Source of the DNA: Candidatus Hydrogenedentota bacterium
Lineage (GTDB): Bacteria; Hydrogenedentota; Hydrogenedentia; Hydrogenedentales; SLHB01
DNA length: 64,000 bases
Reading direction: 5' to 3'
NCBI GenBank assembly: GCA_029552745.1
Contig: JAKPDK010000167.1
Location: forward strand, 7,622-71,621
In this document: positions 1,032 to 56,950 of the stretch, piece by piece
Numbering within the stretch: the first letter of the stretch is position 1
Layout of the letters: each line of letters opens with the position of its first letter
The notes under the pieces: model-generated
The model's input: the letters and a program-made list of their open reading frames with translations, nothing else
Databases searched by the model: none
Told to the model about the DNA's origin: nothing
Program-made: the position numbers and the translations under genes

Positions 1032-1610
1032 TTAGGAAGCGTGTCGGTTGTATTCCAAAAAGTTCTTAATGATCTGTTTGCCGCAAACCGTTAAAATGCT
1101 TTCCGGGTGAAATTGGACCCCCCAGATAGGGTAATCCTTGTGTTTCACGCCCATGATTTCGTGGGCATCCGTCCACGCCGTCGTCTCGAGGACATCCGGC
1201 TTTGTTTCTGGTCGAATCACCAGGGAATGATATCGCGTTGCCGTGAAAGGCGATTCTATGCCGGCAAACAACGGGTCATTGTTGTGATAAATCTCGCTCA
1301 CTTTGCCGTGCATGATACGTCCCGCGCGGACGATTTCTCCGCCGAAGGCTTCCCCGATACTCTGGTGGCCTAGGCACACCCCCAGAAGGGGAATTTGGGG
1401 ACCCAGGCGGCGGATCAGTTCGATGGAGATTCCCGCCTCATTTGGGGTACATGGCCCCGGGGAGACGACAAGATAATCCGGTTTCAACGCTTCGACTTGT
1501 TCGACAGTAATGGCGTCATTCCGGAAAACGCGGATATCTCGCTCAAACTCCCCGAAATATTGCACCAGGTTGTAGGTAAACGAATCGTAGTTATCAATGA
1601 TCACGATCAT
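1032..1610 (-). CDS. trpG: anthranilate synthase component II / glutamine amidotransferase (TrpG/PabA family)
   Basis: 192 aa. Class-I GATase signature '[19 protein letters not shown]', with Cys in '[15 protein letters not shown]' and His in 'VQFHPESI'. It overlaps the upstream trpE stop by 4 nt. Confidence 0.85.
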
Positions 1611-3789: not shown

Positions 3790-3885
3790 CGCCCTCCTGC
3801 GCTAGGTCCTCGTTGTCATTGCGAGGAGTGCCATAGGCACGACGCGGCAATCCCCTCGGAAAATCGAGGATTACCCGCCTCTGTC
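3790..3885. repeat. solo copy of the palindromic MITE-like element (GTTGTCATTGCGAGGAG...GGCAATCCCCTCGG core)
   Basis: 'cgttgtcattgcgaggagtgccataggcacgacgcggcaatcccctcgg' matches the 97-bp unit of the 14.2-kb array. Intergenic between hisI and the BNR gene. Confidence 0.6.
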
Positions 3886-10385: not shown

Positions 10386-11765
10386 TTAAGCTTTTTCGAG
10401 AACGGCAAGCATCTCTTCGATGCGCGTAAACTTTTCGCGCGGTTTGCCAGCGGCGCGTCCCCGTTCCATTTCCGCCGCATCAATGCGCCTCCAATCGTCA
10501 AACGATACGACACGTACGCCGCGTTCTCGAAGCAGGGTATGTAGCAGCTCGTCGTCTCGTGCCTCACATGGCGAAAGGCGGGGCAGGTCCTCAACGATAC
10601 ACTTAACAGTTTCCGCGGCATCCGGTTTGTTTGTCCCAATAACTCCCTGAGGTCCCCGTTTGATCCATCCGCAGGTATAAAACCCTACTACCGGCGTTCC
10701 GTTGTCTACCACTCGCCCGTCCCGATTCGGAATGACGCCGCGAGAATGGTCGAAGGGAACCTGGGGCATTTCCGTGCCGCGATAGCCTACGCTGCGAAAC
10801 AGCAGGCCGCAAGGAATGTCCTGGTATATACCCCTGCCCACTGCTCTGAGTTTCATCGGCTCCCCCTCAAGTCGATTCTTTTCCAGGCGGACACCTTCCA
10901 AACGAGTGGTGCCGAGCAGTGCCACCGGACTCTTCAAAAAATGAATATGTATCTGTTTTTGCGCCGTGGAAGGATGGGAATCACCTATTTTTCTGAGAAT
11001 TTCCATGTTTGCGCGCGCATGGGCGTTTTCCGGCAGTGCCAACTCCTGTTCCGAAATAGAATCAAGCTGCATATATTCCGGGTCAATTACGACCCGGCAA
11101 TCGGGGATGGTAAGCAACTCCTTTAATTCTGCGGCGGTGAACTTCGTTTGTGCAGGCCCTCTTCTGCCAATTAAATGAATGTAACGAATGCGGCTCGAGG
11201 CTAGCGCTTCAAGTGCATGCGCCGCGATGTCCGTATGGGCAAGTTCGTCTACGGGCTTTGCAAGAATGCGGCATACGTCTAACGCCACATTTCCCTGACC
11301 GATGACCACGGCTGTCTCGGCGGTCAAGTCAAAGGTTCTGTCGCGATAATCGGGGTGTCCGTTATACCACCCTACAAACTCGGTCGCTGTGCAGCTACCG
11401 GGAAGGTCTTCGCCGGGGATATGCAGAGCACGGTCTTTTTCAGCGCCATAGGCAAAAACGACCACGTCAAAAAATCGCCGAAGTTCGTTGACGGTGAGAT
11501 CGGTTCCAATGCGCACATTACCCCAAAACGAGTAGCCAGGAGCCGCCGCGATGCGATCAAAAACTTTGATCACGCTCTTTATCTTGGGATGGTCCGGGGC
11601 GACACCTGCCCGTACCAATCCGTAAGGGGTAGGCAATCGGTCAAACATTGCCACAGCGACAGTCGTTCCGCTGTGCATCAGGGCATCCGCGGCGTAAAAC
11701 GCGCTAGGACCGCTGCCGACAATGGCGACACGTAAAGGCATATCCGTAGAACCGAGATGACTCAT
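10386..11765 (-). CDS. fprA: NADPH:ferredoxin (adrenodoxin-type) oxidoreductase, FprA-like
   Basis: 459 aa. Near-collinear match to the mycobacterial FprA / adrenodoxin reductase pattern: 'VAIVGSGPSAFYAADAL', 'FDRLPTPYGLVRAGVAPDHPKIKSV', 'VIGQGNVALDVCRIL', 'GWIKRGPQGVIGTNK'. Confidence 0.8.
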   Translation of the reverse strand: MSHLGSTDMPLRVAIVGSGPSAFYAADALMHSGTTVAVAMFDRLPTPYGLVRAGVAPDHPKIKSVIKVFDRIAAAPGYSFWGNVRIGTDLTVNELRRFFDVVVFAYGAEKDRALHIPGEDLPGSCTATEFVGWYNGHPDYRDRTFDLTAETAVVIGQGNVALDVCRILAKPVDELAHTDIAAHALEALASSRIRYIHLIGRRGPAQTKFTAAELKELLTIPDCRVVIDPEYMQLDSISEQELALPENAHARANMEILRKIGDSHPSTAQKQIHIHFLKSPVALLGTTRLEGVRLEKNRLEGEPMKLRAVGRGIYQDIPCGLLFRSVGYRGTEMPQVPFDHSRGVIPNRDGRVVDNGTPVVGFYTCGWIKRGPQGVIGTNKPDAAETVKCIVEDLPRLSPCEARDDELLHTLLRERGVRVVSFDDWRRIDAAEMERGRAAGKPREKFTRIEEMLAVLEKA

Positions 11766-13852
11766 TCTGTCCTTTCTGTTGATTTCACAGTCGGTGTAAA
11801 GGCATTAGCAGAAATAGGGAGTTGCTTCTCATAAAAACCATCGAGAGTTTCAAAATGTTCCCTGCGCCATTGTTCCAACCGTGCTTGAAGATCAGCGACG
11901 ATTTCCGGGTGTTGGGGCGCTAGGTTCTGTTTTTCTTGGGGGTCATTATCAAGTGAAAAGAGGAGGAATGCGCCGGTATTCAGGTGCAAGACCCCTTTAT
12001 ACCCTTTGAAGACCACCATTTCCAGCGAGCCATCGGGCGGATCTGCCGAGACCGCTCGCGCAAAAACGGGCTGGGGCGTGAGCACAACGGTTGTCCTTGT
12101 TGGGAGGACAGGCAAGACGTTTCCTTGCCAAACAGTCGGGACCCCAGCGCCCGCCAGAGATGCCAACGTCGGCGCAACATCCAGCAGGGATACGGGAGTT
12201 TCCTCAACCCGCGGGCGTATCCCTCGGCCTGCCAGGATCAAGGGCACGCGCACCACCTCGTCATATAAAGACTGCCCATGTCCCCAGGCGCCGTGTTCCC
12301 AAAATTCCTCGCCGTGACTGGCGGTAAAACAAACGTACGAACTTGCGCCCAGCTTTAACAGATCCAATTCTGCAAGAAGCCGCCGTACAGACCGATCAAC
12401 GTAGCGTACTTCGGCATCATATAGTGCCCGGATCTGGCGTTTGGTCTCGTCAGATGGCGAATCTTTTATGGTGGGAATGGAGTAACCTTGATATGCCTCA
12501 GGATGGAACCCCAGGAGTGCCGGCGAGGGGACATCCTTCGGGTGAAAATCATCCGGCGGATCGTAGGGCGCTTGAGGGTCTATAAGATGAACGTAGAGGA
12601 AGAAAGGCGAATACGGGTCGCGTCGGACAAACTCAAGTGCGTAACGCAGAACGTCACGGGTCGAATCATGAAAATGGGTGTCCACGGTACCGGGCAGGTA
12701 CTTACCTACAAAGGAACGAAGCGCGGGCAATAGCCGAAAAGGTCCGCGCGTTTCCGGCACGAACGGGTGGGTGAAGCAGACTTGTTGAAAGCCTCGCAAC
12801 GCGCCCGGCATGTCTTGTATTGCAGGATTTGCCACCACCGCGCAAGTTCGATACCCACGGTCGCGGAGGACTTCAGCAAGAAGTACGTCATGGGAACGAA
12901 ACCCGAATCTGCCTGGTTCCGCTGCTTTCTGTTCTTGCGACGTGTGAAGGGCAGCCTCGGGCGGATACACCGACGCATGCAGACTCAACAAGGACGGCAA
13001 GGTAGACGCCGCCGTGGCGTAACACCGGTTGTAGACCACACCAACTTGACTCAGCTTTTTCAAGGCGTGAGAGAGCTCCGGATCACCCATCCTTGTAAAC
13101 GCATCTGCACGAAATCCGTCCGACACGATCAGCACCATGTTGGGACGTGACACATCCCGGGGGACTTTTTGGGGCATGGGGAAAAGGTTTGCTGTGAGCA
13201 CCGGCAAGGAAAAGCCTACAAGAGCAACAGCCCCAAATGCCCAGCGGCGTACCGACGAGTCTCGCAAAAGGAGCGTAGAAAACCCATCCCCCGAGATCTC
13301 GATAACCCACACTAGAGCGGCAATCGTCAGGTACTCCGCACGACGGGGACTGAAAAGGAACACCTCGTGCCCCCACTGGACCGCCGCAATTCCGGAAACC
13401 ATAGCAACCACATAGCGCGTGGACAAAGCAGAAAGAGGCACAGACCGCCAAACCGATAAAGATTGAAAAAGGAGACCCGTGAGCACAATTCCCCCGAACA
13501 TGACCATATCGCTTCTGTCCGTGACGGAATCTTGACCGTTTCGGACGAAAGCCCAGAGCACGGCAGCGCTGACGGAACAAACCCAAATGACAAGTAGCGA
13601 GCGTTTCAAAAATCTATTTCGTGCAAAGGAAAAAACAGTTCCCAACCCCACTAGCGCAAGACCGAACAGCGCCCCTAGATATACCAACCCGCCAAGTAAC
13701 GCGGATAGCCACTCTCTGGGTTCCGCACCCGTGAACAATCCCGAACGGTGAACTTTCAATACTTCGCAAAAAACAAAAAAACTGGCAAACGCTGCAGAGA
13801 CACAAACGGTGTCCCGGAGAAATTTCCCCCTCGCTGTTAAAGAACTAACCAA
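11762..13852 (-). CDS. membrane-anchored sulfatase / alkaline-phosphatase-superfamily protein
   Basis: 696 aa. The N-terminal ~230 aa are multi-TM. The C-terminal catalytic domain has 'MVLIVSDGFRADAF' and 'CFTASHGEEFWEHGAWGHGQSLYDEVVRVPLILAG', the sulfatase/AP-superfamily metal-site pattern. The stop overlaps the fprA start by 4 nt. Confidence 0.6.
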   Translation of the reverse strand: MVSSLTARGKFLRDTVCVSAAFASFFVFCEVLKVHRSGLFTGAEPREWLSALLGGLVYLGALFGLALVGLGTVFSFARNRFLKRSLLVIWVCSVSAAVLWAFVRNGQDSVTDRSDMVMFGGIVLTGLLFQSLSVWRSVPLSALSTRYVVAMVSGIAAVQWGHEVFLFSPRRAEYLTIAALVWVIEISGDGFSTLLLRDSSVRRWAFGAVALVGFSLPVLTANLFPMPQKVPRDVSRPNMVLIVSDGFRADAFTRMGDPELSHALKKLSQVGVVYNRCYATAASTLPSLLSLHASVYPPEAALHTSQEQKAAEPGRFGFRSHDVLLAEVLRDRGYRTCAVVANPAIQDMPGALRGFQQVCFTHPFVPETRGPFRLLPALRSFVGKYLPGTVDTHFHDSTRDVLRYALEFVRRDPYSPFFLYVHLIDPQAPYDPPDDFHPKDVPSPALLGFHPEAYQGYSIPTIKDSPSDETKRQIRALYDAEVRYVDRSVRRLLAELDLLKLGASSYVCFTASHGEEFWEHGAWGHGQSLYDEVVRVPLILAGRGIRPRVEETPVSLLDVAPTLASLAGAGVPTVWQGNVLPVLPTRTTVVLTPQPVFARAVSADPPDGSLEMVVFKGYKGVLHLNTGAFLLFSLDNDPQEKQNLAPQHPEIVADLQARLEQWRREHFETLDGFYEKQLPISANAFTPTVKSTERTE

Positions 13853-14185
13853 ATTATGCCATTCTCCTGCCGCCCCAAAAAGTCTCGCTTACAGGTTTCT
13901 AGGCGGACATTTTACGCAAAAAACCGCCGCTTGTTTCACCGCAACGGGCGCGATGTAGTCTGAAAATCAGCCCGCTACACACTGCGGCAAAAAAGCCTCC
14001 GCATTTTGCCAAAAAACCCGCAGAATTTTAACGCGTAACCTTACGTGAGAGCAAAACGTTCGGCACGGACTCCCTCTTTTTGGACACTTTGGATAAACGG
14101 GTCCCAGCGAACTTCGGTACGAGGCGTGTCTAGTCAGTCTAATTTTGAAGCACCCCGCGCTACTTGCCCCCAAAAACGCCCTTTT

Positions 14186-15495
14186 CGCTTGTCATTGCGA
14201 CGAGCGGCGTCAGGCACGACGTGGCAATCCCCTTGGGATTTCGGGGATTAGCATGCCCTAGGTCCTCTTGCGCTACGTCTCCCACGTTGTCATTGCGAGG
14301 AGTGCCGCAGGCACGACGTGGCAATCCCCTCGGGATTTCGGGGATTAGCATGCCCTGGGTCCTCTTGCGCTACGTCTCCTCCGTTGTCATTGCGAGGAGC
14401 CCCGCAGGGGCGACGCGGCAATCCCCTCGGGATTTCGGGGATTAGCATGCCCTGGGTTCTCTTGCGCTGCGTCTCTGGCGCTGTCATTGCGAGGAGTGCC
14501 GGTAGACACGACGCGGCAATCCCCTCGGGAGTTCGGGGATGACCACGCCCTGGGTTCCCGTGCGCTACGCGGTTGAGGGGATTGCTTCGTCGCTTCGAAG
14601 ACTCGCTCCTCGCAATGACACCGCGGGGGACATCAAACCCAACAAGATTCATTGAAACCCCTCCCTGCCGTCCCTTGTAGGGGCGAGCCCCCGTGCTCGC
14701 CCTCCCTTGTGCCTGCGCAGAACTACGTTTTCCGAGCATCCCATGTTTTTCCCCGTAGGGGCAAAATTGGTTGGGCAACCACGGGGGTTGCCCCTACACA
14801 TGTTCAGAATAGCCTTATTTTGTCCATTCCGTCCACCTCTCCTTGCGAGAAGTGCCGTTAGGCACGACGTGGCAATCCCCTTAGGAATTCGGGGATGACC
14901 ATGCCCTGGGTTCTCTTGCGCTACGCGGTTGAGGGGATTGCTTCGTCGCTTCGGGGACTCGCTCCTCGCAATGACACGGCGGGGGACAATAAACCCAACC
15001 GGATAGGGTGAAACCACTCCCTGCCATCCCTTGTAGGGGCGAGCCCCTGTGCTCGCCCTGCCAGTCCCTGCCCAAAACTACCTTCTTCGCGCATTCCACG
15101 TTTCCCCCGTAGGGGCGAGATTGGTTGGGCAACCACAGGGGGTTGCCCCTACTCATGTTCAGAATAACCTTATTTCGTCCATTCCGTCCACCTCTTCTTG
15201 CGAGGAGTGCCGGTAGGCACGACGTGGCAATCCCCTTGGGATTTCGGAATGACCATGCCCGGGGTTCTCTTGCGCTACGCGGTTGAGGGGATTGCTTCGT
15301 CGCTTCGAAGACTCGCTCCTCGCAATGACAACCACAAATGCCGGCGTAAGACGGGCAAGGCATGCCTCGGCCGTACAACGAAGGATGGGGACATTAGGCG
15401 CAACGCGTTGCGCCCTATCTTAAGCCCGGCGGTTGTCCCCATGATCCCCGAGGAGATTGCCGCGTCGTACCTGGCGGCAGTCCTCGGAATGACGG
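14186..15495. repeat. complex tandem array of the palindromic MITE-like element: about four tandem 97-bp units (14190-14490), then 2.5 copies of a ~360-bp composite unit, plus a degenerate terminal copy
   Basis: The unit 'gttgtcattgcgaggagtgccgcaggcacgacgtggcaatcccctcgggatttcggggattagcatgccctgggtcctcttgcgctacgtctcc' is repeated head-to-tail. Further right, the inverted partner 'gaggggattgcttcgtcgcttcgaagactcgctcctcgcaatgaca' recurs at ~14570, ~14930 and ~15280, with internal palindromes 'tgtaggggcgagcccccgtgctcgccc' and 'ggttgggcaaccacgggggttgcccctac'. There are no unique spacers. Confidence 0.85.
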
Positions 15496-15678
15496 GGTCA
15501 AAGGGAATGGCCTCGTACAATTCATTGACTCATTGTCACCGCGCGTCTATACTAAAGGGTGGGTTGCCGTGGACGTGTGTAAATCAATTTCGGGCAACGC
15601 GGGATAGACTAGGCGGCTGAGGTGTGATGTTAGCGTTTATCTTAGCAGGTAAAAACACACGATAAGGAAAAAGCCAAA

Positions 15679-18600
15679 ATGAGCAGGATATCTCTTGTGG
15701 TGGCGCAGCTCTTGAAAACGAAAACTCGGACGGGACGCGCGATAGCATTGGGCATGGTTGCGCTAACAGTTTGCGCGGTTTCGGTTTCTCAGGAGGCGAC
15801 ACCGACGTCCAGCATCGTGATCACTACAGACGGCGCTAATCCGGTGCCGTCGTCGTATATCCTGATGGTGGGCAGCAGCCAAGATTTTGCGGTGTTGCGC
15901 GTATTTGCTGATGGGACGAGACAAGCGGCAAGCCCGGGAGAAATCCAATGGACGTTTAGCGCCCCGAATCTTGTGGAAGTCTCTGTTGACGCAGTCTCTG
16001 GTTTTGCAGTGGTGACTGCCGTCCGTGAAGGAGAAGGAGTCTTGCGTGCTACAGATGATAGCGGTGCGGTAACGGAGGTGCGGCTATGCATGCGTACCCG
16101 TGGAGGCTCAGGGCAAGCCGCGACATCGGGCGCTTTGCTCGGGCTACGGGTCCCCTCGGACAATGCCCGAATTTTCTATCAGCAGGCCTCGTCAGGGGTG
16201 CCTCTCACGGTACTTGCCGCGAACGAAGGGCCTGTTGCGTTTGACCGTTTGCAATTCACCCTGGATGGATTTCAATTGGGTGTGGCACAGGAAGCCCCAT
16301 ATGCCGTAACCCATCGCGATGTTACCGTTCTACCAACATGGCAGCACCACCGAGTTTCTGTAAAAGGATTTCTCGCAAGTTCTGATGGACAACCTCTCGA
16401 AAGGACTTTGTCTTTCTTCACGGTGCCGATAGATGCGGACAAAAATGGCGATGGCTTGCCCGACGACTTGTTAAGCCTGGGGATGGCTCCAGGTGACTTG
16501 TGGGTAGCACGTACGGGGAAATCTAGACCAAACACCTTAAATGGTAACGAGGCGGCAGTTGCGTCAGGGTCAGTAGTCATTGCTGCCCTTCCCGTAGGAA
16601 TAAACCCCGGTGCATCTGTCGTCATACAAGACCCGGACAATCCGAAACGTACGACCGTGGTAACCGTGGCGCCGGGCTTGCTGCAATCAAACGAGATAGG
16701 TTTCCTAATCGTGGTAGTAAGTGATGAACTGGACGGGATCGTCGAGAGCGCGCCCACCTTGCCGAGCCACGAACTCACCCCCCAAGGGGCTTTTGTTTTT
16801 GCTTCGGTCATAGCTAGTCGGGATGGCGGAAAAACGTTTTTTAACCTTGACAAAGATCGCCTCGCAGACGGAGCGGTGCGGATAGACATGTACGGGGTAG
16901 CCGTCGTCCCCGATGAAAATGCCAGGTTCTTAATGTATCCCGCCGCAGTGGGTAACGCCGAAGGTACGGCGGAAGCGGGACTTAGACTGTCCGTTTCCCA
17001 TGACGGGACATGGTCGGACTCTTCCAGAGGGTCCCAGATTCGCACAGGCGTCATTTCCACATGGATGACAGCGCCGGGGATCTATGCCCCCTTCGTCACG
17101 CCGTCGCAAATACAGATTTTGGGTGTTTGGAATGCTGATACCGGCACCCCCTCGGGTTATTGCATTGGGGGCGACACGGTCATGCTGCGGCTGGCAAACG
17201 CACCTCGAGATGTGATTCCATCGGTAGCATTTGATGGGATCTCCGCGCCCCACGTGGAACAGGTGAGCGGTACCCCCGACCTTTTCATGGTGACTTCGCC
17301 GCGGGCTCCCCGTTCGGAAGCTCCTGTTACTGCTAGAAAAGTCGACGTTCAGGTTTCGCTTCTTGAAGACCCAGATAACCGAGACACGTTGGCGGATGGG
17401 TTCACGTTCGTTGGCCCTGAGATAGACACCATCCGTCCCAACACGGGACCCCAAAACGGCGGTACGACCGTTTGGCTATGGGGACACGGATTTGATAAGC
17501 AGGGGATGGCCGCACGAATTGGAACGTCGGTGCTGGTGCAAATCTCCGACGTAACCCCCACCCTGTTCCGGGGTGTTACAACGCCGGGGGAAGCAGCGAT
17601 AGCCGATGTGGTTGTGCGAACTTCCAATGGCTATCTTGGAATATTGCGAAACGGTTATACCTACACACAAGATGAGGCCTCCATTGACAACGGTGTGACG
17701 CTGAATGCTCCTTCGTCCAATCCTGCAACGTCTTCCGAAACCTCGCCGCGTGTTGTGCGAATAGAACCGGCTACCGCGTGGTCCTATGGCGGGTGCGTGG
17801 TACGGTTGTCTGGAAGTGGCTTTGTGCCAGATGCGACACGTGGCACGCGCGTCTTCATCGGGGGGCAAGAAGCTTCCTATGCGCCGCCTGCCGCCGGCAC
17901 GACTCCATCCACCACAGACCTGTATGTAATTGCCCCGGGGCTTCCATCTGATGTGGAACCCGATTTCGACCGAGTGAAGGTTGCTGTTGCGGTGGTAAAT
18001 CCCGATGGTACTCAAACGGCCTATCCGGCGTGCTTTACCTATGTGCGCAACGAAAAACGTCTTCAAACCACGCCCGCACAAGATGATACCCCAGCGTGTA
18101 CCGATATGGTTCATTCTTGGACTTTCTCGTTCGATTCGCGAACGGGATCGGGCACCTGCGCCTTTCCCATAACCGATGGGCTTGTCCCGGATACACTTTA
18201 TGTCGATATTCCCCCGTTGCCTGATGCGTGGAAAGGGACGGTGTTTGCCCTCATTCGGGCGACCCGAGAGTACCGGTTACTGGGTTTGGAAAACATTGCT
18301 GCGGGCGAGTCAATAGAGGGTTGCTGGGCAGTAGATGTCCATTTGTATCGAGGCGAATATCCGTTTGACGAATTGAAACCCCAGTTTGATCTGCACACAG
18401 ATTCTCTGGTGATTGATTTCCCCACCACCGACAAGATGGGACAACCCCTTCTATTTGCGGGTGACATCCAGAGCGGCGGCACGGCAGTCTATCGCCTGGA
18501 CACGAGCCTTTCGTCTTGGGACTATTTCAATGCCGATTGGGGGTATGTGGTAGACGGGGATACCGCCGGCGTTTACCAATGGAATGTCGGCGCCGGCGAC

Positions 18601-19482
18601 ACCGCACCCGCAATAGCGCGTTCTGGCAATCCGGAACTCCCCGTGGAACGTGTTCGATTTAAGGCAGACCGCACCGGTTCGTTCATGCTAAGAAAATGCG
18701 CGTTCATTCCGGATGAACTCCTAAAAGCCACCTCCTATGCCATTGCCGAAGACAGTCCGAAAAGCGGCCCCTATGGCGGTGGTACGGAAATCCGCATCGT
18801 GGGACGCGGGTTGGCATGGCCGAATCGCATTCGGTTTGGCGAAGTCACCGCGTATTTACCGGGAACCTCACTGGAAGGGCGACTGCTTTATGCGGACGAC
18901 ACGGAGATCCGCGTATTGTCACCTGCGGTGACCCCCCGCGATGGTAGTCTGACGGTAGATATTGGCATTGATTTACCCCAAGGGTTAGACAAGGCGGAGC
19001 GCGAAGTGGTGTTACAGAAACAGTACACGCTCCAAAACCTGGGTCCATTGGCAACAATCCTCGCCGCGTTGGTTGCGGTGCCCGTTGCGCTCATCGGGCT
19101 GTTTGCCGGTGGCAAGAGCGGCGGTGGCGGTGGCGGACCTTGCTTCATTGCGACAGCGGCGTATGGCACGCCCCTGGCGGAACAAATTGATGTGCTCCGC
19201 GCCGTTCGAGATCACTTCCTCTTGACAAATGCATTCGGTACGGCGATAGTTGACGTTTATTATCGGGTGAGTCCGGCACTTGCAGACGTGATCGCGGCAC
19301 ACCCATTGTTGGCGGGCGTGGTCCGATTGTTGCTCTGGCCGGTGGTTTGGGTTTCTCGCGCGGCACTCGCAATGCCTGGTGTCATATGGCCATCGTTCGC
19401 TTTACTGACTACCCTGGCGCTTTATCCTTTCCGAAGGAAAAGGTCTAGACGCAACACGCTTCGTGTGCATCAAGAAAAATAA
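15679..19482 (+). CDS. giant secreted surface protein with IPT/TIG domains and a conserved C-terminal 'CFIATAAYG' anchor-like domain
   Basis: 1267 aa with an N-terminal signal peptide. IPT/TIG-type segments include 'IRPNTGPQNGGTTVWLWGHGF', 'IEPATAWSYGGCVVRLSGSGF' and 'GPYGGGTEIRIVGRGL'. The C-terminus reads 'GGGGGGPCFIATAAYGTPLAEQIDVLRAVRDHFLLTN...', followed by a hydrophobic stretch and the basic tail 'FRRKRSRRN'. Confidence 0.7.
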   Translation: MSRISLVVAQLLKTKTRTGRAIALGMVALTVCAVSVSQEATPTSSIVITTDGANPVPSSYILMVGSSQDFAVLRVFADGTRQAASPGEIQWTFSAPNLVEVSVDAVSGFAVVTAVREGEGVLRATDDSGAVTEVRLCMRTRGGSGQAATSGALLGLRVPSDNARIFYQQASSGVPLTVLAANEGPVAFDRLQFTLDGFQLGVAQEAPYAVTHRDVTVLPTWQHHRVSVKGFLASSDGQPLERTLSFFTVPIDADKNGDGLPDDLLSLGMAPGDLWVARTGKSRPNTLNGNEAAVASGSVVIAALPVGINPGASVVIQDPDNPKRTTVVTVAPGLLQSNEIGFLIVVVSDELDGIVESAPTLPSHELTPQGAFVFASVIASRDGGKTFFNLDKDRLADGAVRIDMYGVAVVPDENARFLMYPAAVGNAEGTAEAGLRLSVSHDGTWSDSSRGSQIRTGVISTWMTAPGIYAPFVTPSQIQILGVWNADTGTPSGYCIGGDTVMLRLANAPRDVIPSVAFDGISAPHVEQVSGTPDLFMVTSPRAPRSEAPVTARKVDVQVSLLEDPDNRDTLADGFTFVGPEIDTIRPNTGPQNGGTTVWLWGHGFDKQGMAARIGTSVLVQISDVTPTLFRGVTTPGEAAIADVVVRTSNGYLGILRNGYTYTQDEASIDNGVTLNAPSSNPATSSETSPRVVRIEPATAWSYGGCVVRLSGSGFVPDATRGTRVFIGGQEASYAPPAAGTTPSTTDLYVIAPGLPSDVEPDFDRVKVAVAVVNPDGTQTAYPACFTYVRNEKRLQTTPAQDDTPACTDMVHSWTFSFDSRTGSGTCAFPITDGLVPDTLYVDIPPLPDAWKGTVFALIRATREYRLLGLENIAAGESIEGCWAVDVHLYRGEYPFDELKPQFDLHTDSLVIDFPTTDKMGQPLLFAGDIQSGGTAVYRLDTSLSSWDYFNADWGYVVDGDTAGVYQWNVGAGDTAPAIARSGNPELPVERVRFKADRTGSFMLRKCAFIPDELLKATSYAIAEDSPKSGPYGGGTEIRIVGRGLAWPNRIRFGEVTAYLPGTSLEGRLLYADDTEIRVLSPAVTPRDGSLTVDIGIDLPQGLDKAEREVVLQKQYTLQNLGPLATILAALVAVPVALIGLFAGGKSGGGGGGPCFIATAAYGTPLAEQIDVLRAVRDHFLLTNAFGTAIVDVYYRVSPALADVIAAHPLLAGVVRLLLWPVVWVSRAALAMPGVIWPSFALLTTLALYPFRRKRSRRNTLRVHQEK

Positions 19483-20035: not shown

Positions 20036-20375
20036 CATGGGGAACGCGAACATACAGACGACTTAACCGAATCTCTTCCATGCTTGCTTGGTCACAGGCG
20101 TCTCCATCCACGACGCCCACGCAGGATATCCGGTCGTCTTTAACCCTCGTGCATCTGTGGTTGCTTCAATTTTGACTCTGGCAATACTTCATACCAAACT
20201 GAACCTAGAACAACAATTTTGTCCCATCACATAGGGCTACCGCATGGGTACTTATGTGTCTACTTTCACACGCACGCCGTGCGCCTGGCTTATGGCAAAC
20301 CAACAACTCGCCCCGGAACTTGGCTTTCCAAGAATGGACACCGTATGTATAATGGACGTAGGAAAGGAAAATACA

Positions 20376-20666
20376 GTGAATTCAAGCGTTGACATTGTGC
20401 GGCAACTCGCCTTAATACGCGCGCAACTGAACGAACGGTTTACAGTTACCCGAATCGGTGTTTTCGGTTCCTGCGTCAGAGACGAAGACGCGCCTACAAG
20501 CGACGTGGATATTCTTGTCGATCTGGCAGAACCTACGTTTGATCATTACATGGACCTCAAGTTCCTGTTGGAAGATCTGTTGCAACGACCTGTTGACCTG
20601 GTTCTTGCAGATGCGTTGAAACCACGCATTAAACCTGTCATCGAGCGGGAAGTCATCTATGTCTAG
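20376..20666 (+). CDS. nucleotidyltransferase-domain antitoxin (MNT/MntA-like)
   Basis: 'RIGVFGSCVRDEDAPTSDVDILVDL' is the minimal nucleotidyltransferase (GS...DxD) motif. The likely start is GTG at 20376, with AGGAAAGGA 7 nt upstream; in-frame ATGs at 20334 and 20352 are alternatives. The stop overlaps the hepT start by 8 nt. Confidence 0.75.
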   Translation: MNSSVDIVRQLALIRAQLNERFTVTRIGVFGSCVRDEDAPTSDVDILVDLAEPTFDHYMDLKFLLEDLLQRPVDLVLADALKPRIKPVIEREVIYV

Positions 20667-21003
20667 GGAACCTGGTTTGTATCTGGACGATATGGTGGAG
20701 GCAATCGCCCGAATACGGGAATATACGGCTGCGATGAAATACGATATGTTCGCGCAAGATAGAAGGACTCAGGATGCGGTGATACGTAATCTTGAGATTA
20801 TCGGCGCAGCCGCAGCACGCCTGCCCGACGACTTGAGAAACTGTGCGCCTGAGATCGAATGGCGAAAAATTATCGCATTGCGAAACGTGCTTGCTCATGA
20901 GTATTTTGGAATCAGTCTGCCCATGATTTGGGACGTGGTGCAGAACAAACTGGCAAGTCTCGAAACAGCTTGCGGCAGGCTGTCAGACAAGCAAGAGAAA
21001 TGA
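20659..21003 (+). CDS. HepT-like (DUF86) HEPN toxin
   Basis: 114 aa. DUF86/HepT signature 'IRNLEIIGAAAARLPDDL...WRKIIALRNVLAHEYFGI', i.e. the Rx4HxY HEPN motif 'RNVLAHEY'. Confidence 0.8.
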   Translation: MSREPGLYLDDMVEAIARIREYTAAMKYDMFAQDRRTQDAVIRNLEIIGAAAARLPDDLRNCAPEIEWRKIIALRNVLAHEYFGISLPMIWDVVQNKLASLETACGRLSDKQEK

Positions 21004-32254: not shown

Positions 32255-32445
32255 CACCACGCTTCTCCCCGCGAGTGCCGCCCGGGGACGAATCTTTTTA
32301 CCCAGAACCCTACGTTGTCATTGCGAGGAACCCCGCCATTCCCACACCTTTTTCTCGAACCCTACGTTGTCATTGCGAGGAGCCCCGAAGGGGCGACGTG
32401 GCAATCCCCTCAGGTATTCGAAAATGCCCCGGGACCCTGCCTTAT
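32255..32445. repeat. MITE-like palindromic element copy (two 'gttgtcattgcgagga' cores) in the V-ATPase operon upstream region
   Basis: 'ccctacgttgtcattgcgaggaaccccgcc...ccctacgttgtcattgcgaggagccccgaaggggcgacgtggcaatcccctcagg'. Confidence 0.7.
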
Positions 32446-39439: not shown

Positions 39440-39745
39440 TCGTTGTCATTGCGAGAAATGGGTGTTCAACACGACGAAGCAATCTCCGCCTCTTTTTGTA
39501 GGGGCGAGACATGCCTCGCCCTTTCACGTCCTTGCCCGGGACGCGCCTCTTGTTGCCGATTGCCCAGCATTGTCATTGCGAGGAGCGAATCTTCGAAGCG
39601 ACGAAGCAATCCCCTCACCCGCGCAGCGGAACAGGACGTATTGCTTTACCGTGGCTATCCCCCAATTCTCGAGGGGATTGCCACGTCGCCCCTGCGGGGC
39701 TCCTCGCAATGACAACCTGGGGGACATAGCGCAAGCGGGTCTTGA
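39440..39745. repeat. MITE-like palindromic element, composite copy immediately upstream of the csm6-like/cas6-like cassette
   Basis: 'gttgtcattgcgagaaatgg...acgacgaagcaatctcc...gtaggggcgagacatgcctcgccc...cattgtcattgcgaggagcgaatcttcgaagcgacgaagcaatcccctc...gaggggattgccacgtcgcccctgcggggctcctcgcaatgacaacc'. Confidence 0.75.
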
Positions 39746-40004: not shown

Positions 40005-41369
40005 ATGAAAATCTGCATTATTGCCAACGTGGGGCAGCGGGATTTGATGATAGATGGTAAGCCCCTGCCTTCGGAGAAATTACGGGAGTACTCCAAAGAA
40101 ATAAACGAAAATTATGAATCTCAAAAAGGCAGGCTTAGCGCGCCTTTACTAGAACCCGCTATGAATCTAATCTTGAACGAGTTTGACAATAAAACAGAAA
40201 TTAAAATGACTCTCATCGCGACCAACCAGGAAGACCTAAACTTTCAGAAGGGGGACACCATATACTGCGCAAAAGTTTTGGAGAAGCTTTTGAAAGCAAA
40301 GTTCTCGAAAAAAACGAGCTTGGATATAAGAATCAGAGAACTAAAGTCTCCTCCGAACATGTATGATGCAATGATCCCTTGTTATATGGGTTGGGCGCAA
40401 AGCAGAAAGTTTCAAACGGAGAATGCCGACCGTGTGTATCTGATATGTACCGGAGGAACGCCGGCTTGCAACACCGCATTGCTTTTGGCAGGTATCAGCG
40501 TATTCCGCCATAAATGCGAGGCTATTTACATTAATGAAAGAGACAAGAATCCGTATCCTTTACAAGTCGGCAAGCAGGTACTCGGTTTGTACCGAAAAGA
40601 GCGTCTCAATGCCTTGTTAAAGAGGCATGATTTTGCCGGTATCGCCGCCGACACAGAACAAGCACAGGAGGTGCGCGATGTTGCTGGCGCTGCCGCGGCG
40701 CGATTAAATTTCGACTTCGAAAAGATGAAGAGGCATTTGGCACCCCTCGTCCGCGAGCCTTTTCTTCGCTCCCTCATAGGGTCTCTGTGGGATGAAGCGA
40801 ATACATTGACAAAAAACGACTGTGAACGGGTAAAGAAACTACGAGAACTCTATTGGAATGCCGTTTTGAAATGGGAGGCAGAAGAATGCGCGGATTTTCT
40901 CGGAAGGGTGTTTCGGTTGCGCGAAGAAGCCCTGCGTGTGGGGGTCGAAAGGGTCAGCGGGATTGCCCTCGATAGTACGCAAGCAAATGACAAAAAGCTT
41001 TGGGATTGGGTAAGAGAAGATCCTGAATTGGAACAAAAAATGGGAAACAAGAGCGGCTCACACCCCAGTACAGAGGTCCTTTCGAAAGTTTTGGAGATAG
41101 AATCTGCCAAATTTCCCGAGGTCCGAGGTCTTTACGAGACATCGGAGTGGTTCAGGGATTTATCCCAACTGCGTAATAAAAGCATCATAGCCCACGACAC
41201 ACAAGGGGTCTCCAAAGAAAATATTCTCGAGAAAATCACTGGAACGGAAGAAACCATTTTTGACCAATTGAAGCGACTTTGCGAGTTGTTGGGTGTGGAG
41301 ACGGGTGAAAACCCCTACGATGAATTTGCAAAAGCCATCCACCAAATCGACGAAAAGGTGAATCGCTGA
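40005..41369 (+). CDS. Csm6/Csx1-like CARF-HEPN family protein (putative cyclic-oligoadenylate-activated RNase), orphan
   Basis: The track ORF starts at GTG 39981; the ATG at 40005 with GAGGAAA upstream is more likely. N-terminal 'KICIIANVGQRD' and Gly-rich 'VYLICTGGTPACNTALLLAG' resemble the CARF ligand-binding core. C-terminal 'LRNKSIIAHD' fits the HEPN Rx4-6H motif. The first ~600 bp are visibly A/T-rich. Motif-level call only. Confidence 0.5.
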   Translation: MKICIIANVGQRDLMIDGKPLPSEKLREYSKEINENYESQKGRLSAPLLEPAMNLILNEFDNKTEIKMTLIATNQEDLNFQKGDTIYCAKVLEKLLKAKFSKKTSLDIRIRELKSPPNMYDAMIPCYMGWAQSRKFQTENADRVYLICTGGTPACNTALLLAGISVFRHKCEAIYINERDKNPYPLQVGKQVLGLYRKERLNALLKRHDFAGIAADTEQAQEVRDVAGAAAARLNFDFEKMKRHLAPLVREPFLRSLIGSLWDEANTLTKNDCERVKKLRELYWNAVLKWEAEECADFLGRVFRLREEALRVGVERVSGIALDSTQANDKKLWDWVREDPELEQKMGNKSGSHPSTEVLSKVLEIESAKFPEVRGLYETSEWFRDLSQLRNKSIIAHDTQGVSKENILEKITGTEETIFDQLKRLCELLGVETGENPYDEFAKAIHQIDEKVNR

Positions 41370-42325
41370 TGCCGCTGGAACGTTTAACCGCTACCGAACA
41401 GGATGTTTGTTTCCGGGCGTTGGAATCGTTGCGTCTACCGGCGTATAAAGGCTCTACCTTCCGCGGCGCTTTTGGCCATGCCTTCAAACACGTGGCGTGC
41501 GCCTTAAAGACCAACGTCTGTGCCAAATGTCTGTTGCGACATCGCTGCGCCTATAGTGTGTGTTTCGAAACTCCCGTGCCCCAAGAAGCCGAGATCCTGC
41601 GCAAGTATCCTTTTGCGCCGCATCCGTTTGTATTGGAACCGCCTCAAGACGACCGCCGGGAGTACGAACCGGGCGCAGAACTGCAGGTGCGGCTGTATTT
41701 GGTGGGAAAAGCACAGGAATATTTGCCTCATTTTATATACGCCTTCGAAGAGATGGGCAAACGGGGACTGGGGAGGGAACCGGGCAAAACGGAACTGGTG
41801 TGGGTACGGAGCCGCCGGAACGGGGAAACCAACTTGATTTATGACGGCAATGCCCAAGAACTCGTGGGTGCCCCTATGGTTTGGTCAGCTCATGAGATTG
41901 CCACGCGATCATCGACCCTGGCGGGAATACCTTTGCGCCTCATTTTTGAAACGCCTACAAGGGTTAAATCCGAAGGTAGATTGGCCGCGGCACCCGACTT
42001 TGCCACACTCGCCCCAAGTCTGCTGCGGCGGTTGAACATGTTGCATTACTTCTTTTGCGGCGGAGAATTTGCCCGCGACATTCACCCACTGTTGGACGCC
42101 GCACGTGGCGTGAAAACCTTGGAGACCGAGATGCGCTGGGTGGATTGGACGCGCTATTCCGCACGGCAAGATGCTACCATGCAGTTGGGTGGATTCGTCG
42201 GCACAATGACGATTAGCCCGCCGCCCGAAAATGTCCTCGTTTATATCCTCTGGGGAGAATTGTTGCATCTCGGCAAGGGCGGCGCGTTCGGCCTAGGAAA
42301 ATACCGCATCGAACCGATCGAGTAG
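41369..42325 (+). CDS. Cas6-like RAMP endoribonuclease with N-terminal Cys cluster (putative Zn finger)
   Basis: 318 aa. Its ATG overlaps the upstream stop (cgcTGATGccg). The Cas6-like N-terminus is 'LPAYKGSTFRGAFGHAFKHV'. The Cys cluster is 'CALKTNVCAKCLLRHRCAYSVC'. The glycine-rich loop 'LGKGGAFGLGKY' sits 6 aa from the C-terminus, as in Cas6 (GhGxxxxxGhG). Confidence 0.5.
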   Translation: MPLERLTATEQDVCFRALESLRLPAYKGSTFRGAFGHAFKHVACALKTNVCAKCLLRHRCAYSVCFETPVPQEAEILRKYPFAPHPFVLEPPQDDRREYEPGAELQVRLYLVGKAQEYLPHFIYAFEEMGKRGLGREPGKTELVWVRSRRNGETNLIYDGNAQELVGAPMVWSAHEIATRSSTLAGIPLRLIFETPTRVKSEGRLAAAPDFATLAPSLLRRLNMLHYFFCGGEFARDIHPLLDAARGVKTLETEMRWVDWTRYSARQDATMQLGGFVGTMTISPPPENVLVYILWGELLHLGKGGAFGLGKYRIEPIE

Positions 42326-46454: not shown

Positions 46455-46965
46455 CCTCCCGGTTGTCATTGCGAGGAGCCCCGAAGGGGCGACGTGGCAA
46501 TCCCCTTAGGATTTTGGGGATGACCATGCCCTGGGTTCTCTTGCGCAGCGCGGTTGAGGGGATTGCTTCGTCGCGTCGGAGACTCCGCTCCTCGCAATGA
46601 CAACGCGGGGGACCTCAAACCCAACGGGCTAGGGTGAGACCCTTCCCTTCCATCCCCTGTAGGGGCGAGCCCCCGTGTTCGCCCTTCCCCGTCCACGGCA
46701 GAACTACCTTCACCGCCCATTCTTGGCCTTCCCTGTAGGTGCGAGGCATGCCTCGCACCCCGCCGTTACGCGATTCAGCCCCCCTTTGTCCCCCTGCACG
46801 CGGGGGGATGGAAGATTAAAACAGGCTGCAAACCTATTCGTATTCGTATCGCCTGTGGGTGCCAGGGGTCTAACATTGGGCAACCACGGGGGGTTGCCCC
46901 TACGATGTTCAGAATAACCCGTTTTGCCCATTGCCTCCGGGTGTCATTGCGGGCACCGTAGGGCA
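46455..46965. repeat. MITE-like composite element (~500 bp; same family as the 14.2-kb array)
   Basis: 'gttgtcattgcgaggagccccgaaggggcgacgtggcaatcccctta...ggttgaggggattgcttcgtcgcgtcggagactccgctcctcgcaatgaca...ctgtaggggcgagcccccgtgttcgccc...tgtaggtgcgaggcatgcctcgcacc...ggcaaccacggggggttgcccctacgatgttcagaataac'. Confidence 0.8.
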
Positions 46966-53369: not shown

Positions 53370-53720
53370 CTGCTCCTCCCCGTTGTTGTCATTGCGAGGA
53401 GCGAGTCCCCGAAACGACGAAGCAATCCCCTTAGGAATTGGGTATAACCCCGGACTCTGTTTTATCCTTCGCCCTCTTGCGTCTTTTGTGGGGGCGCACT
53501 GCTGTGCGCCCTTCCTCCTCCTTCCCACATACAACCTCTTCCCACCCATGGGCCCCTTGTTGTCATTGCGAGAAGCGAGCCTCCGAAGCGACGAAGCAAT
53601 CCCCTCAACCGCGTAGCGCAAGAGAGCGCAGGACAGAGGCGGAGTCCTCTCCGAACTCCCGAGGGAATTGCCACGTCGTCCCTAAGGCACTCCCCGCACT
53701 GACGGTGTGAGGGACGTAGC
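53370..53720. repeat. MITE-like composite element copy
   Basis: 'gttgttgtcattgcgaggagcgagtccccgaaacgacgaagcaatcccctta...gggggcgcactgctgtgcgccc...gttgtcattgcgagaagcgagcctccgaagcgacgaagcaatcccctcaacc...gagggaattgccacgtcgtccc'. Confidence 0.75.
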
Positions 53721-56839: not shown

Positions 56840-56950
56840 GCAGAAGGCGTTGCGCCCTATTGCGACGCCCGGGTTTTCTCGCTGATTCCCGAGGGAATTG
56901 CCACCTCGTGCCTTTGGCACTCCTCGCAATGACAGCGGGGGGACGGATCG
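56840..56950. repeat. MITE-like element, short copy
   Basis: 'ggcgttgcgccctattgcgacgcccgg' (compare 15400 'gcgttgcgccctatcttaagcccgg') followed by 'cccgagggaattgccacctcgtgcctttggcactcctcgcaatgaca'. Confidence 0.6.

Follow-up and report, generated by a model that had tools for sequence, protein, structure and literature searches.

An intergenic gap of 1826 bp in a Candidatus Hydrogenedentes MAG separates two divergent genes, one encoding a sulfatase-like protein and the other a TIG surface protein, and palindromic repeats fill 1.3 of its 1.83 kb (~14189-15505; all positions refer to the window, the whole 64-kb stretch of DNA that was analysed). The locus raises the question of what kind of repeat cluster this is and whether it acts on the surface-protein gene. 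Based on the analyses described here, the array is probably a mosaic of selfish, non-coding hairpin repeats of the NIME/BIME type, and nothing indicates that it switches genes.

Architecture of the array and its surroundings

Tandem Repeats Finder identified a 97-bp array with 3.9 copies (88% matches, 0 indels, score 548) and a 356-bp array with 2.4 copies (89% matches, score 1343), which together are the sole non-coding tandem array in the window (Table 1). A separate repeat search recovered the same registers, and identity between units is 88-94% in both arrays. These results bear out a preliminary description of this DNA, which had proposed a tandem array of a composite palindromic repeat; the repeats contain no ORFs. 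The same description recognized a degenerate terminal copy, which was confirmed: positions 15447-15503 pair with the left arm (14473-14529) at 81% complementarity. The repeats leave 336 bp of array-free DNA on the sulfatase side of the gap and ~175 bp on the TIG-gene side. Within the 1.3 kb lie 10 copies of a half-element (7 intact, 3 degenerate), with repeated spacers of ~55-220 bp between them. Because the spacers are themselves repeated, a CRISPR array is ruled out, as had already been argued.

The three palindromes named in the preliminary description are all present. The pair GTCATTGCGAGGAG / CTCCTCGCAATGAC has 22 matches in the window at ≤2 mismatches (1.6 expected), the GTAGGGGCGAGCCC-type palindrome has 7 (0.44 expected), and the third palindrome, GGGCAACCACGGGGGTTGCCCCTAC, was also confirmed. 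The partner of GTAGGGGCGAGCC is this third palindrome reversed, not its own reverse complement.

The main block, element A, is a ~40-nt hairpin of the form GTC-ATTGC-GAGGAG-(variable apical hairpin)-CGACGNR-GCAAT-C, present singly or as inverted doublets of ~140 nt. Each half-element, written as the pattern GTCATTGCGAGGAG-N(8-20)-GACGNRGCAATC, starts with a 5' GTC and ends with a 3' C; between them are a conserved lower stem (ATTGC/GCAAT), an internal loop rich in purines and the variable apical hairpin; its length is 38-41 nt in the window and reaches ~47 nt in other genomes. The first doublet of the array has a predicted fold of -86.9 kcal/mol (z = -6.6). The other two palindromes, elements B and C, have a GTAG foot and resemble REP hairpins, and the first B-C pair folds into one long hairpin with z = -5.75 on the + strand and -4.4 on the - strand. 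For these elements, the pattern GTRGGKGCR has 15 matches in the window compared with 4.6 expected, and the hairpin-bearing copies are all intergenic.

Table 1. Positions of the repeats, flanking genes and promoter-like site in the window
Feature	Positions	Strand	Remarks
Whole repeat array	14189-15505		Bracketed by inverted half-elements 14191 (+) and 15493 (-)
97-bp tandem array	14189-14569	+	Unit: 12-nt flank, ~40-nt SRM-like hairpin, ~45 nt of doublet loop
356-bp higher-order tandem array	14487-15330	+	Unit: A doublet, spacer, B-C hairpin, tail; from alignment
SRM-like half-element 1	14191-14229	+	GTCATTGCGACGAG...GGCAATC
SRM-like half-element 2	14289-14326	+	
SRM-like half-element 3	14386-14423	+	Apical hairpin GCCCC/GGGGC; GTGCC/GGCAC in other half-elements
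A doublet 1	14483-14619		Inverted half-elements 14483-14521 (+) and 14580-14619 (-); loop 58 nt
A doublet 2	14839-14975		Left arm degenerate (TCCTTGCGAGAAG, GTCAT lost); right arm 14936-14975 (-) intact
A doublet 3	15194-15329		Left arm degenerate (TTCTTGCGAGGAG); right arm 15290-15329 (-) intact
B-C long hairpin 1	14676-14798		REP-like GTAGGGGCGAGCCCCCGTGCTCGCCC (+, 14677-14702) opposite GTAGGGGCAACCCCCGTGGTTGCCC (-, 14773-14797)
B-C long hairpin 2	15032-15153		From alignment and pattern matches
Two small terminal palindromes	15350-15424		GGCCGAGGCATGCCTTGCC and GGCGCAACGCGTTGCGCC
Degenerate terminal half-element	15452-15493	-	GTCATTCCGAGGAC...GGCAATC
Membrane sulfatase-family protein, 696 aa	11762-13852	-	Divergent
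Sigma-70-like promoter match, TTGACT-17-TATACT	15525-15553	+	10 of 12; outside array, 126 nt before ATG
IPT/TIG surface protein, 1267 aa	15679-19482	+	CFI-box-CTERM domain
Solitary half-element	3815-3852	+	
Solitary half-element	32369-32406	+	Truncated copy at 32318
Dispersed cluster	39445-39713		Half-element, GTAG hairpin, A doublet (39572-39713); fold z = -7.2
Second composite A-B-C copy	46465-46960	+	~125 bp extra relative to array units; then partial A arm
Dispersed cluster	53388-53702		Half-element, GTGG hairpin, A doublet with degenerate right arm
Solitary half-element	56896-56933	-	

The window is matched at 100% identity, over 11-24 kb, by six contigs that come from other samples and assemblers, and the entire gap is covered in five of these; the array is therefore not an assembly artefact. 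It is the same in each of the five, although the complete identity of all six contigs means that such clonal assemblies say little about its stability. Length polymorphism, which the preliminary description had put forward as the mark of slippage, was seen in the one divergent strain available (L003, which has 99.8-99.9% identity with the window), where exactly one 97-bp unit is missing from an otherwise unchanged gap in a single short-read (k141) assembly that may reflect repeat collapse. A search for further strains with the sulfatase protein returned the same assemblies and two more contigs, both of which end within the array.

The array lies between the sulfatase and TIG genes as described, but it does not occupy the whole promoter region of the latter: the only sigma-70-like match within positions 13700-15800 falls between the array end and the ATG, and we found no promoter-like or terminator-like sites inside the array. 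Hardly any homologues of the TIG protein exist in a set of 5.8 billion proteins, suggesting that it is fast-evolving or acquired, and since its one distant homologue aligns with 34% identity over 45% of the length, the array cannot be compared across species. No copy of the motif was found downstream of the TIG gene, so the gene is not in a motif-gene-motif configuration.

Rather than being confined to this locus, the repeats are scattered through the rest of the window, between genes every time. The 17 intact half-elements in the window are distributed over 7 loci, all within the non-coding ~17%. Repeats occupy gaps between divergent genes, between co-directional genes and probably between convergent ones, with half-elements in both orientations relative to adjacent genes, and some copies outside the array adjoin ordinary metabolic genes. 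The second composite copy comes after a large ORF with internal repeats.

The main hairpin in other genomes and its association with Ssn-like nucleases

Nearly letter for letter, the motif recurs in >100 genomes that represent at least 14 phyla. A 27-base pattern had >116 exact matches in species-representative genomes, among them members of Chloroflexota, Patescibacteria, Pseudomonadota, Planctomycetota, Nitrospirota, Bacteroidota and Bacillota, as well as one complete Bradyrhizobium genome. Only the ~40-nt hairpin is common to the window and the other genomes; loops and spacers are not. In many phyla the motif adjoins unrelated genes, and its carriage by phages is rare, given only 12 matches in viral contigs.

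The form GTC-ATTGC...GCAAT-C(C) is common to all 17 window copies and to 120 copies from across the phyla. An apical stem of at least 3 bp is kept in 81% of 110 distinct inserts, compared with 36% of shuffles. Other genomes contain variants with ATCGC...GCGAT inside a single half, which indicates that each half forms its own hairpin; we dropped a four-way-junction reading because these variants favour two independent hairpins. A K-turn reading was dropped because the G.A positions do not fit, and an integron attC reading because the order of the GTT/AAC boxes is reversed relative to attC. Rfam identified no family, either at gathering scores for the whole window or at E values up to 5 for the gap, and the best sub-threshold matches were of the generic long-hairpin kind, to plant miRNA precursors (E ≥0.24). 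A tRNA/tmRNA scan found nothing. Literature searches with the repeat sequence returned PCR primers only, and those on GIY-YIG proteins together with palindromic, intergenic or mobile repeats returned mostly organelle genome papers.

Using jackhmmer, we identified GIY-YIG ORFs between motifs in 4-5 of the motif-bearing genome loci. As a reverse test, 80 metagenome loci were picked by protein similarity alone; the motif occurred ≤200 nt from the ~95-aa GIY-YIG gene in 79 of the 80, and on both sides in 72. The median arm-to-arm length of the arm-ssn-arm unit is 379 bp, and a target-site duplication is absent in 55 of 65 ssn-carrying units. With the published pattern, SRMs, the motifs of the GIY-YIG site-specific ssDNA nucleases named Ssn, lie near 71% of ssn genes and on both sides of 42% (Chenal et al., Nat Commun 2025, PMC11893778); NTS is the other name under which such motifs are described there.

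The motif-linked protein is a single-domain PF01541 protein. By TBLASTN, 95% of its length aligned to an ORF at a single Neisseria gonorrhoeae locus (47.8% identity, E = 4e-22), and this locus is embedded in 11 NTS repeats, in agreement with the published description of ssnA and NTS (PMC11893778). The E value lies below the limit (E < 1e-10) used to recognize Ssn homologues, which are assigned to cd10448 (PMC11893778). A word-indexed search with an alignment of 3 such proteins yielded at least 8000 candidates, and the 8000 that were scored all reached E = 1e-10 or better. NCBIfam offers no model specific to this Ssn-like protein, and the nearest PDB sequence is the UPF0213 protein 1ZG2 (E = 3e-6).

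We identified no ssn or GIY-YIG ORF in ~79 kb of the source contig, made up of the window and ~15 kb of additional flank, and no Hydrogenedentes entries are among the best 120 Ssn-like proteins; the repeats may be orphans. In unrelated contigs (L180, L132 and L100), tandem arrays of the motif occur beside ssn-like genes. An all-against-all BLASTP comparison of ORFs in 116 motif-bearing loci identified no recurrent transposase or recombinase, and the largest cluster of shared neighbours consists of ABC ATPases.

The published SRM pattern, HGTCWYN(0-2)YYVSBRHN(0-5)WNVSBRGN(0-2)RNCYNB, matches none of the 17 half-elements on either strand, because they are too long and carry a G at the second stem position; its one match in the window (1514-1541; 0.2 expected) is unrelated. 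The half-elements do carry the SRM hallmark of a conserved GTC 5' and C 3' of the palindrome, both of which matter for cleavage and binding (PMC11893778). A second hallmark, the flanking of ~94-aa single-domain GIY-YIG genes, is seen for the motif family and not within the window. Our assignment to the SRMs, made from sequence, rests on common hallmarks and gene association and not on the published operational definition.

Origin of the array and competing explanations

The near-identity of the motif, its association with GIY-YIG genes and the homology to the ssnA locus suggest that the main component of the array is an extended SRM/NTS variant, with the pair of REP-like GTAG-foot hairpins as the second component. 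As its main repeat is a variant of a motif that flanks ssn genes, the array would belong to an already described kind of repeat cluster. The 140-nt doublets would be ORF-less versions of the ~380-bp hairpin-ssn-hairpin unit, and adjacent copies probably underwent unequal recombination or replication slippage, so that the array expanded locally. Judging from the Neisseria and Wolbachia enzymes, a cognate Ssn would bind the motif as ssDNA and cut a few nucleotides 5' of GTC (PMC11893778). Any effect on neighbouring genes would be incidental.

A more speculative extension, to which we assign a small chance, concerns the arm-ssn-arm unit itself. With its length of ~380 bp, hairpin ends, GIY-YIG nuclease and lack of target-site duplications, and with a motif nearly unchanged over at least 14 phyla, the unit could be actively mobile, moving or homing through ssDNA by a new class of mechanism. 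In that case, this array and the similar ones beside ssn genes may be products of that mechanism, for example of reiterated nicking and copying at hairpins, and not of ordinary recombination. They may also serve as sites of ssDNA "restriction" and influence how adjacent surface-protein genes are exchanged outside Neisseria.

We consider it unlikely that the array is itself adaptive in the manner proposed for Neisseria NTS/dRS3 arrays, with Ssn cleavage or repeat recombination modulating exchange or diversification of the surface-protein gene. The largest cluster in the window does lie directly upstream of a CFI-box-CTERM/TIG surface protein that is almost without homologues, and the second composite copy follows an ORF with internal repeats. 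In Neisseria, NTS clusters adjoin membrane-protein genes, SsnA lowers transformation by NTS-bearing DNA (PMC11893778), and a correlation between NIME arrays and the divergence of genes beside them is described (PMC1797815). However, the Hydrogenedentes case is a single locus that offers no statistics, the motif is missing downstream of the TIG gene, and other copies adjoin metabolic genes; natural competence is not known in Hydrogenedentes, and ssn is lacking in the ~79 kb.

Still less probable is the role suggested in the preliminary description, in which the array would serve the TIG gene as an insulator or as a promoter element, regulatory or phase-variable, whose copy number switches or tunes expression. 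Nothing emerged in favour of such a role beyond the location between divergent genes, the difference of one unit in one strain and the presence of strong hairpins that could impede transcription. The sole sigma-70-like site is downstream of the array, gain or loss of 97- or 356-bp units leaves the spacing of the promoter hexamers unaltered, and the array is identical in every clonal assembly that spans it. Repeats of this kind also occur in several other gene contexts, and beside unrelated genes in many phyla.

The very stable predicted folds of the doublets and the B-C pair (z -4.4 to -7.2), together with an apical hairpin kept through sequence changes across phyla, could point to tandemly duplicated structured ncRNA genes, either sRNAs or cis-regulatory RNAs. 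We regard this as very improbable: both strands fold about equally, as DNA palindromes do, copies lie in both orientations relative to adjacent genes, no Rfam family is reached at gathering score, and the array lacks internal promoter-like and terminator-like sites. The characterised partner protein, moreover, acts on ssDNA and not on RNA; it acts on one strand only and leaves dsDNA uncut (PMC11893778).

The preliminary description had called the repeats a MITE, and they are loosely MITE-like because they are dispersed in the genome, intergenic, small and ORF-less with inverted terminal arms, yet we give hardly any credence to a classical MITE cluster, i.e., deletion derivatives of a DDE-transposase IS mobilised in trans via terminal inverted repeats, given that most ssn units lack target-site duplications and visual inspection of the window doublets revealed none, the only gene associated with the arms encodes a nuclease, no transposase family recurs among the motif-bearing loci, the precomputed Pfam lists (~75 of the 79 kb) contain no transposase and no Y1_Tnp, and solitary arms, each its own hairpin, are common.

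At the locus itself the message is negative, as no evidence points to control of the surface-protein gene by the array. Beyond the locus, the mosaic of selfish hairpin repeats favoured here would extend the Ssn/SRM system and NIME-like arrays, the latter once held to be specific to Neisseria, to an uncultivated phylum of anaerobic digesters. The motif variant is very widespread and is missed by the published pattern, though genes of one large ssn-like branch nearly always have it beside them, and it is unusual for a non-coding motif of 40 nt to stay nearly identical from phylum to phylum. The motif provides a defined substrate for testing Ssn specificity (ssDNA tools) and the mobility of the unit. 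The motif family also explains spurious "hypothetical proteins" called in repeats and many metagenome contig breaks.

Comparison with known repeat systems

The half-element resembles SRM/NTS motifs in being an oriented 20-50-nt hairpin with 5' GTC(A/T)(T/C), a palindrome ATT..AAT and a C directly after it; there are hundreds of intergenic copies, often clustered, and inverted copies flank a ~95-aa GIY-YIG gene. Neisseria NTS reads GTC-ATTCCC...GGGAAT-C, whereas the stem here is ATTGC/GCAAT in place of ATTCCC/GGGAAT. The motif here also differs in its conserved purine-rich internal loop (GAGGAG / CGACGNR) and variable apical hairpin, and at least 14 phyla have this variant in nearly the same sequence. 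With IS200/IS605 elements and PATEs, the repeats and ssn units share hairpin ends, lack of target-site duplication, ORF-less derivatives, compactness and a partner enzyme that recognises ssDNA hairpins; unlike in IS200/IS605, the enzyme of the ssn unit is a GIY-YIG nuclease, for which strand transfer, like mobility of the unit, is putative.

REP, BIME and REPIN repeats and their RAYT (Y1 HUH) transposases are an established system, reportedly treated by Nunvar in 2010, Bertels and Rainey in 2011 and Ton-Hoang in 2012. The B and C elements are REP-like in their 5' GTAG or GTGG, GC-rich imperfect palindrome and extragenic, multicopy distribution, and GTAG-foot hairpins of like form were also found in other phyla. 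The folding of B-C inverted doublets into one long hairpin is REPIN-like, the A doublets resemble REPIN architecture too, and the presence of B and C in mosaic clusters with other repeats recalls BIMEs. No RAYT gene (PF01797) is among the precomputed Pfam matches over ~75 of the 79 kb, and the A element, in contrast to REPs, is tied to a GIY-YIG nuclease and not to a Y1 transposase.

As a whole, the array is closest in form to NIMEs, which combine dRS3/NTS hairpins with 50-150-bp RS repeats (Parkhill 2000; Bentley 2007, PMC1797815). It has the features of a NIME-type array, i.e., nuclease-linked hairpins and 50-200-bp repeated spacers in an intergenic array, and it also shares interspersed repeats of other types, adjacent cell-surface genes and a size of ~1 kb, and may share strain-variable copy number. 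The preliminary description had called the array unusually large, which does not hold against the ~1-kb NIME arrays of Neisseria (PMC1797815) or the similar motif arrays beside ssn-like genes. The array differs from NIMEs in that it is a single examined example from Ca. Hydrogenedentes, is built on a different motif variant, and is a true higher-order tandem duplication with 97- and 356-bp periods and not a mosaic of many RS families.

Anatomy of the array and its dispersed copies

Tandem Repeats Finder (TRF) identified two adjoining arrays in the gap between divergent genes at 11762-13852 (minus strand) and 15679-19482 (plus strand); in the 64-kb window of this Candidatus Hydrogenedentes MAG (GCA_035359255.1), these are the only non-coding tandem arrays. 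Within the window, TCATTGCGAGGAG has 22 matches with ≤2 mismatches (1.6 expected), and GTAGGGGCGAGCCC-like sequences have 7 matches (0.44 expected). The tandem array of palindromes in the preliminary description is thus real, with TRF periods of 97 and 356 bp and all three named palindromes present far above chance; what had been called a degenerate terminal copy proves to be a right arm that has diverged, at 15447-15503. Neither period is divisible by three, and none of the ORFs annotated within the array has a Pfam hit; the array is accordingly non-coding, and these ORFs are probably spurious. The window aligned with 100% identity over 11-24 kb to six contigs from other samples and other assemblers, five of which span the whole gap, and an assembly artefact is excluded as the origin of the array. 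Several low-coverage contigs end in its interior.

The basic unit is the A half-element, an oriented hairpin of ~40 nt (GTC-ATTGC-GAGGAG-small hairpin-CGACG(T/C/A)(G/A)-GCAAT-C). The window contains 17 intact copies, 7 of them in the array, which also holds 3 degenerate ones. Two inverted half-elements separated by a 58-nt loop form an A doublet of ~140 nt, with a very stable predicted fold on both strands (z = -6.3 to -7.2). In the 356-bp unit, a doublet is followed by a spacer, then by another long hairpin and finally by a tail. This other hairpin consists of two REP-like elements, B and C, placed face to face, GTAG-GGGCGAGC...GCTCGCCC and, on the opposite strand, GTAG-GGGCAACC...GGTTGCCC (fold z = -5.75 and -4.4). 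The 97-bp unit comprises one half-element with a 12-nt flank and some of the doublet loop; folded alone, such units show no unusual stability (z = -1.2 and -1.9). An inverted half-element pair brackets the whole array, and its outer flanks (14179-14190 and 15494-15505) both start with CCCTTT, as if the array had grown within one ancestral doublet.

All 17 intact half-elements lie in non-coding DNA, which makes up ~17% of the window; the gaps that contain them separate divergent genes, co-directional genes and probably also convergent ones. The second A-B-C composite directly follows a 908-aa ORF (43619-46345) that matches neither Pfam nor NCBIfam and carries, in frame, 1.9 tandem copies of a 237-bp (79-aa) repeat at 45719-46167. 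The hairpin-repeat cluster at 39445-39713 precedes genes for a Csm6-type HEPN protein (PF09659) and then a Cas6-like protein (PF10040) at 40005-42325; TRF detected no CRISPR-like array across the window.

Repeat features in the window and tandem arrays of the motif family beside ssn-like genes on other contigs
Feature	Position	Strand	Details
Tandem array	14189-14569		period 97, 3.9 copies, 88% matches (TRF)
Tandem array	14487-15330		period 356, 2.4 copies, 89% matches (TRF)
Public gene calls inside array	14160-15378	minus	63, 149, 160 aa; no Pfam hit
Full 356-bp composite, second copy	46465-46960		includes ~125 bp absent from array units
Further singlets/doublets	3815; 32369; 39445-39713; 53388-53702; 56896
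Motif-family array by ssn-like gene	L180 999-1530		~115 bp x 4.5
Motif-family array by ssn-like gene	L132 1129-1491		56 bp x 6.5
Motif-family array by ssn-like gene	L100 6843-6912 and 7304-7387		26 bp x 3

Neighboring genes, promoter and strain variation

The product of the gene downstream of the array is an IPT/TIG protein that contains a CFI-box-CTERM domain (NF041770, 87 bits); a search among 5.8 billion proteins identified, besides the protein itself, a single distant homologue (34% identity across 45% of its length). A toxin-antitoxin pair of a nucleotidyltransferase (MNT, PF01909/PF18765) and a HepT-like protein (PF01934) follows this gene at a distance of ~760 bp (20244-21003). The sole sigma-70-like promoter match in 13700-15800 (TTGACT-17-TATACT) lies past the end of the array at 15525-15553, 126 nt ahead of the ATG, so the array does not occupy the whole promoter region as had been proposed. 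With this match outside the array, the earlier idea of a regulatory or phase-variation element is unlikely, and we infer no dedicated regulatory role.

The one divergent strain that covers the locus (contig L003, 99.8-99.9% identical) lacks exactly one 97-bp unit in an otherwise unchanged gap; most available assemblies are clonal. The deletion is consistent with slippage or unequal recombination, and also with collapse of the repeat during short-read assembly.

The half-element across phyla and its association with GIY-YIG genes

A 27-base half-element pattern had more than 116 exact matches among the matches listed from one-genome-per-species contigs, representing at least 14 phyla by the titles of those records. 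They include Chloroflexota, Patescibacteria, Alpha-, Gamma- and ‘Delta’-proteobacteria, Planctomycetota, Nitrospirota, Omnitrophota, Acidobacteriota, Bacteroidota, Bacillota and one complete Bradyrhizobium genome. Only the ~40-nt hairpin is common to other genomes; the loops, spacers and B and C parts are specific to the Hydrogenedentes genome. Across phyla, the lower stem and internal loop are constant in sequence, and the apical inserts differ in both length and sequence. An apical stem of ≥3 bp is present in 81% of 110 distinct inserts versus 36% of shuffles (maximum 48% in 300 shuffles); the insert stays a hairpin despite sequence change. Right halves that read ATCGC...GCGAT indicate that each half pairs within itself. 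Separately, B/C-like hairpins, in which a GTAGGGGC foot is joined to a stem of variable sequence, occur at several sites in Chloroflexota and Faecousia genomes (L020, L025, L038, L047, L060), and make up a second cross-phylum hairpin family.

Comparison of the genes in motif-bearing loci identified no recurrent transposase near the motif, and in several loci small GIY-YIG ORFs lay directly between motif copies. In a reverse test, an alignment of three such GIY-YIG proteins served as the query against metagenome contigs, so that loci were selected by protein only; 563 candidate stretches proved to be relatives. For the best 80 of these 563, the motif was within 200 nt of the gene in 79 and on both sides in 72, and this protein-only result is decisive for the association. 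Typically, one arm (a half-element flanking the gene) begins ~50 nt ahead of the start codon, and the other ends ~30 nt past the stop codon. The median arm-gene-arm unit is 379 bp long, and target-site duplications are absent from 55 of 65 units. About 79 kb of the source contig yielded neither an ssn gene, encoding a small GIY-YIG ssDNA nuclease, nor a gene for a Y1 transposase. The doublet loop at 14541-14620 reads ATGACCACGCCCTGGGTT... (M-T-T-P-W-V), a faint echo of the GIY-YIG protein N-terminus; this very short stretch may be a remnant of an ssn ORF that was deleted.

The GIY-YIG protein associated with the motif is homologous to the protein of the Neisseria ssnA locus: it matched a single N. 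gonorrhoeae locus with 47.8% identity (E 4e-22; PMC11893778 takes E < 1e-10 as homology), and the matched ORF sits among 11 copies of the NTS hairpin within 3.3 kb. The record (NZ_CP119142.1, 1880213-1883488) comes from PLSDB, where N. gonorrhoeae chromosomes are filed as plasmids. This ssnA-like ORF is absent from the PLSDB gene table and has no obvious in-frame start in its N-terminal part; it may be frameshifted or mis-started.

Interpretation and comparison with Ssn, NIME and REP systems

The array is most likely a NIME/BIME-like cluster of selfish hairpin repeats, locally amplified by recombination between neighboring copies. Its main component would be a motif of the type that an Ssn nuclease recognizes, and the A doublets resemble ssn mini-units that lack the ORF; by analogy, the cognate enzyme would bind and cut the motif as ssDNA. 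The main rival is an adaptive, NIME-like role, in which the array would modulate recombination in the region of the surface-protein gene; the location of the array favors this reading, which we consider improbable. An ncRNA gene and a DDE-type MITE are each unlikely as explanations of the array. The kind of element (Ssn/SRM, NIME-like arrays) and the logic of hairpin repeats are already known. Four features are new: a variant of the motif that escapes the published pattern, even though it is found with a very large branch of ssn-like genes (in a search with an alignment of three of the proteins, all 8000 scored candidates had E-values of 1e-10 or better); the near-identity of this variant across many phyla; a higher-order tandem array of NIME-like type in Hydrogenedentes; and a compact ~380-bp ssn unit without target-site duplications.

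Ssn proteins are a family of single-domain GIY-YIG proteins of ~94 aa (cd10448) that bind a hairpin repeat solely as ssDNA, with cleavage a few nucleotides upstream of the repeat (Chenal et al. 2025, PMC11893778). In Neisseria, this repeat is the NTS, CGTCATTCCCGCGMAVGCGGGAATCYRG, part of dRS3; such repeats, generally named ‘Ssn-related motifs’ (SRM), flank ssn genes and have hundreds of copies in intergenic DNA, and N. meningitidis SsnA reduces transformation by NTS-bearing DNA (PMC11893778). Judged by sequence, the motif and its GIY-YIG gene appear to be exactly this kind of system. The half-element has GTC just before and C just after the palindrome, the critical positions in PMC11893778; however, none of the 17 half-elements fits the degenerate SRM pattern as published, the stem has ATTGC in place of the ATTCCC of Neisseria, and an internal loop and apical hairpin are added. 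We therefore file it as a putative extended SRM variant, not a canonical SRM. The sole window match to the canonical pattern (CGTCATTCCGGAAAACGCGGATATCTCG, 1514-1541) is intergenic, with 0.2 expected by chance, and may be a chance match or a relic of a canonical-type SRM.

As a whole, the array would correspond to arrays of neisserial intergenic mosaic elements (NIME), in which dRS3 hairpins alternate with 50-150-bp repeat families, and which adjoin surface-protein genes and vary in copy number among strains; in 2007 they were stated to be absent outside Neisseria (PMC1797815). Tandem arrays beside ssn-like genes on L180, L132 and L100, which are unrelated metagenome and genome contigs, indicate that arrays are a trait of the motif family. 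The B and C elements show the classical REP form, a GTAG foot with a GC-rich hairpin.
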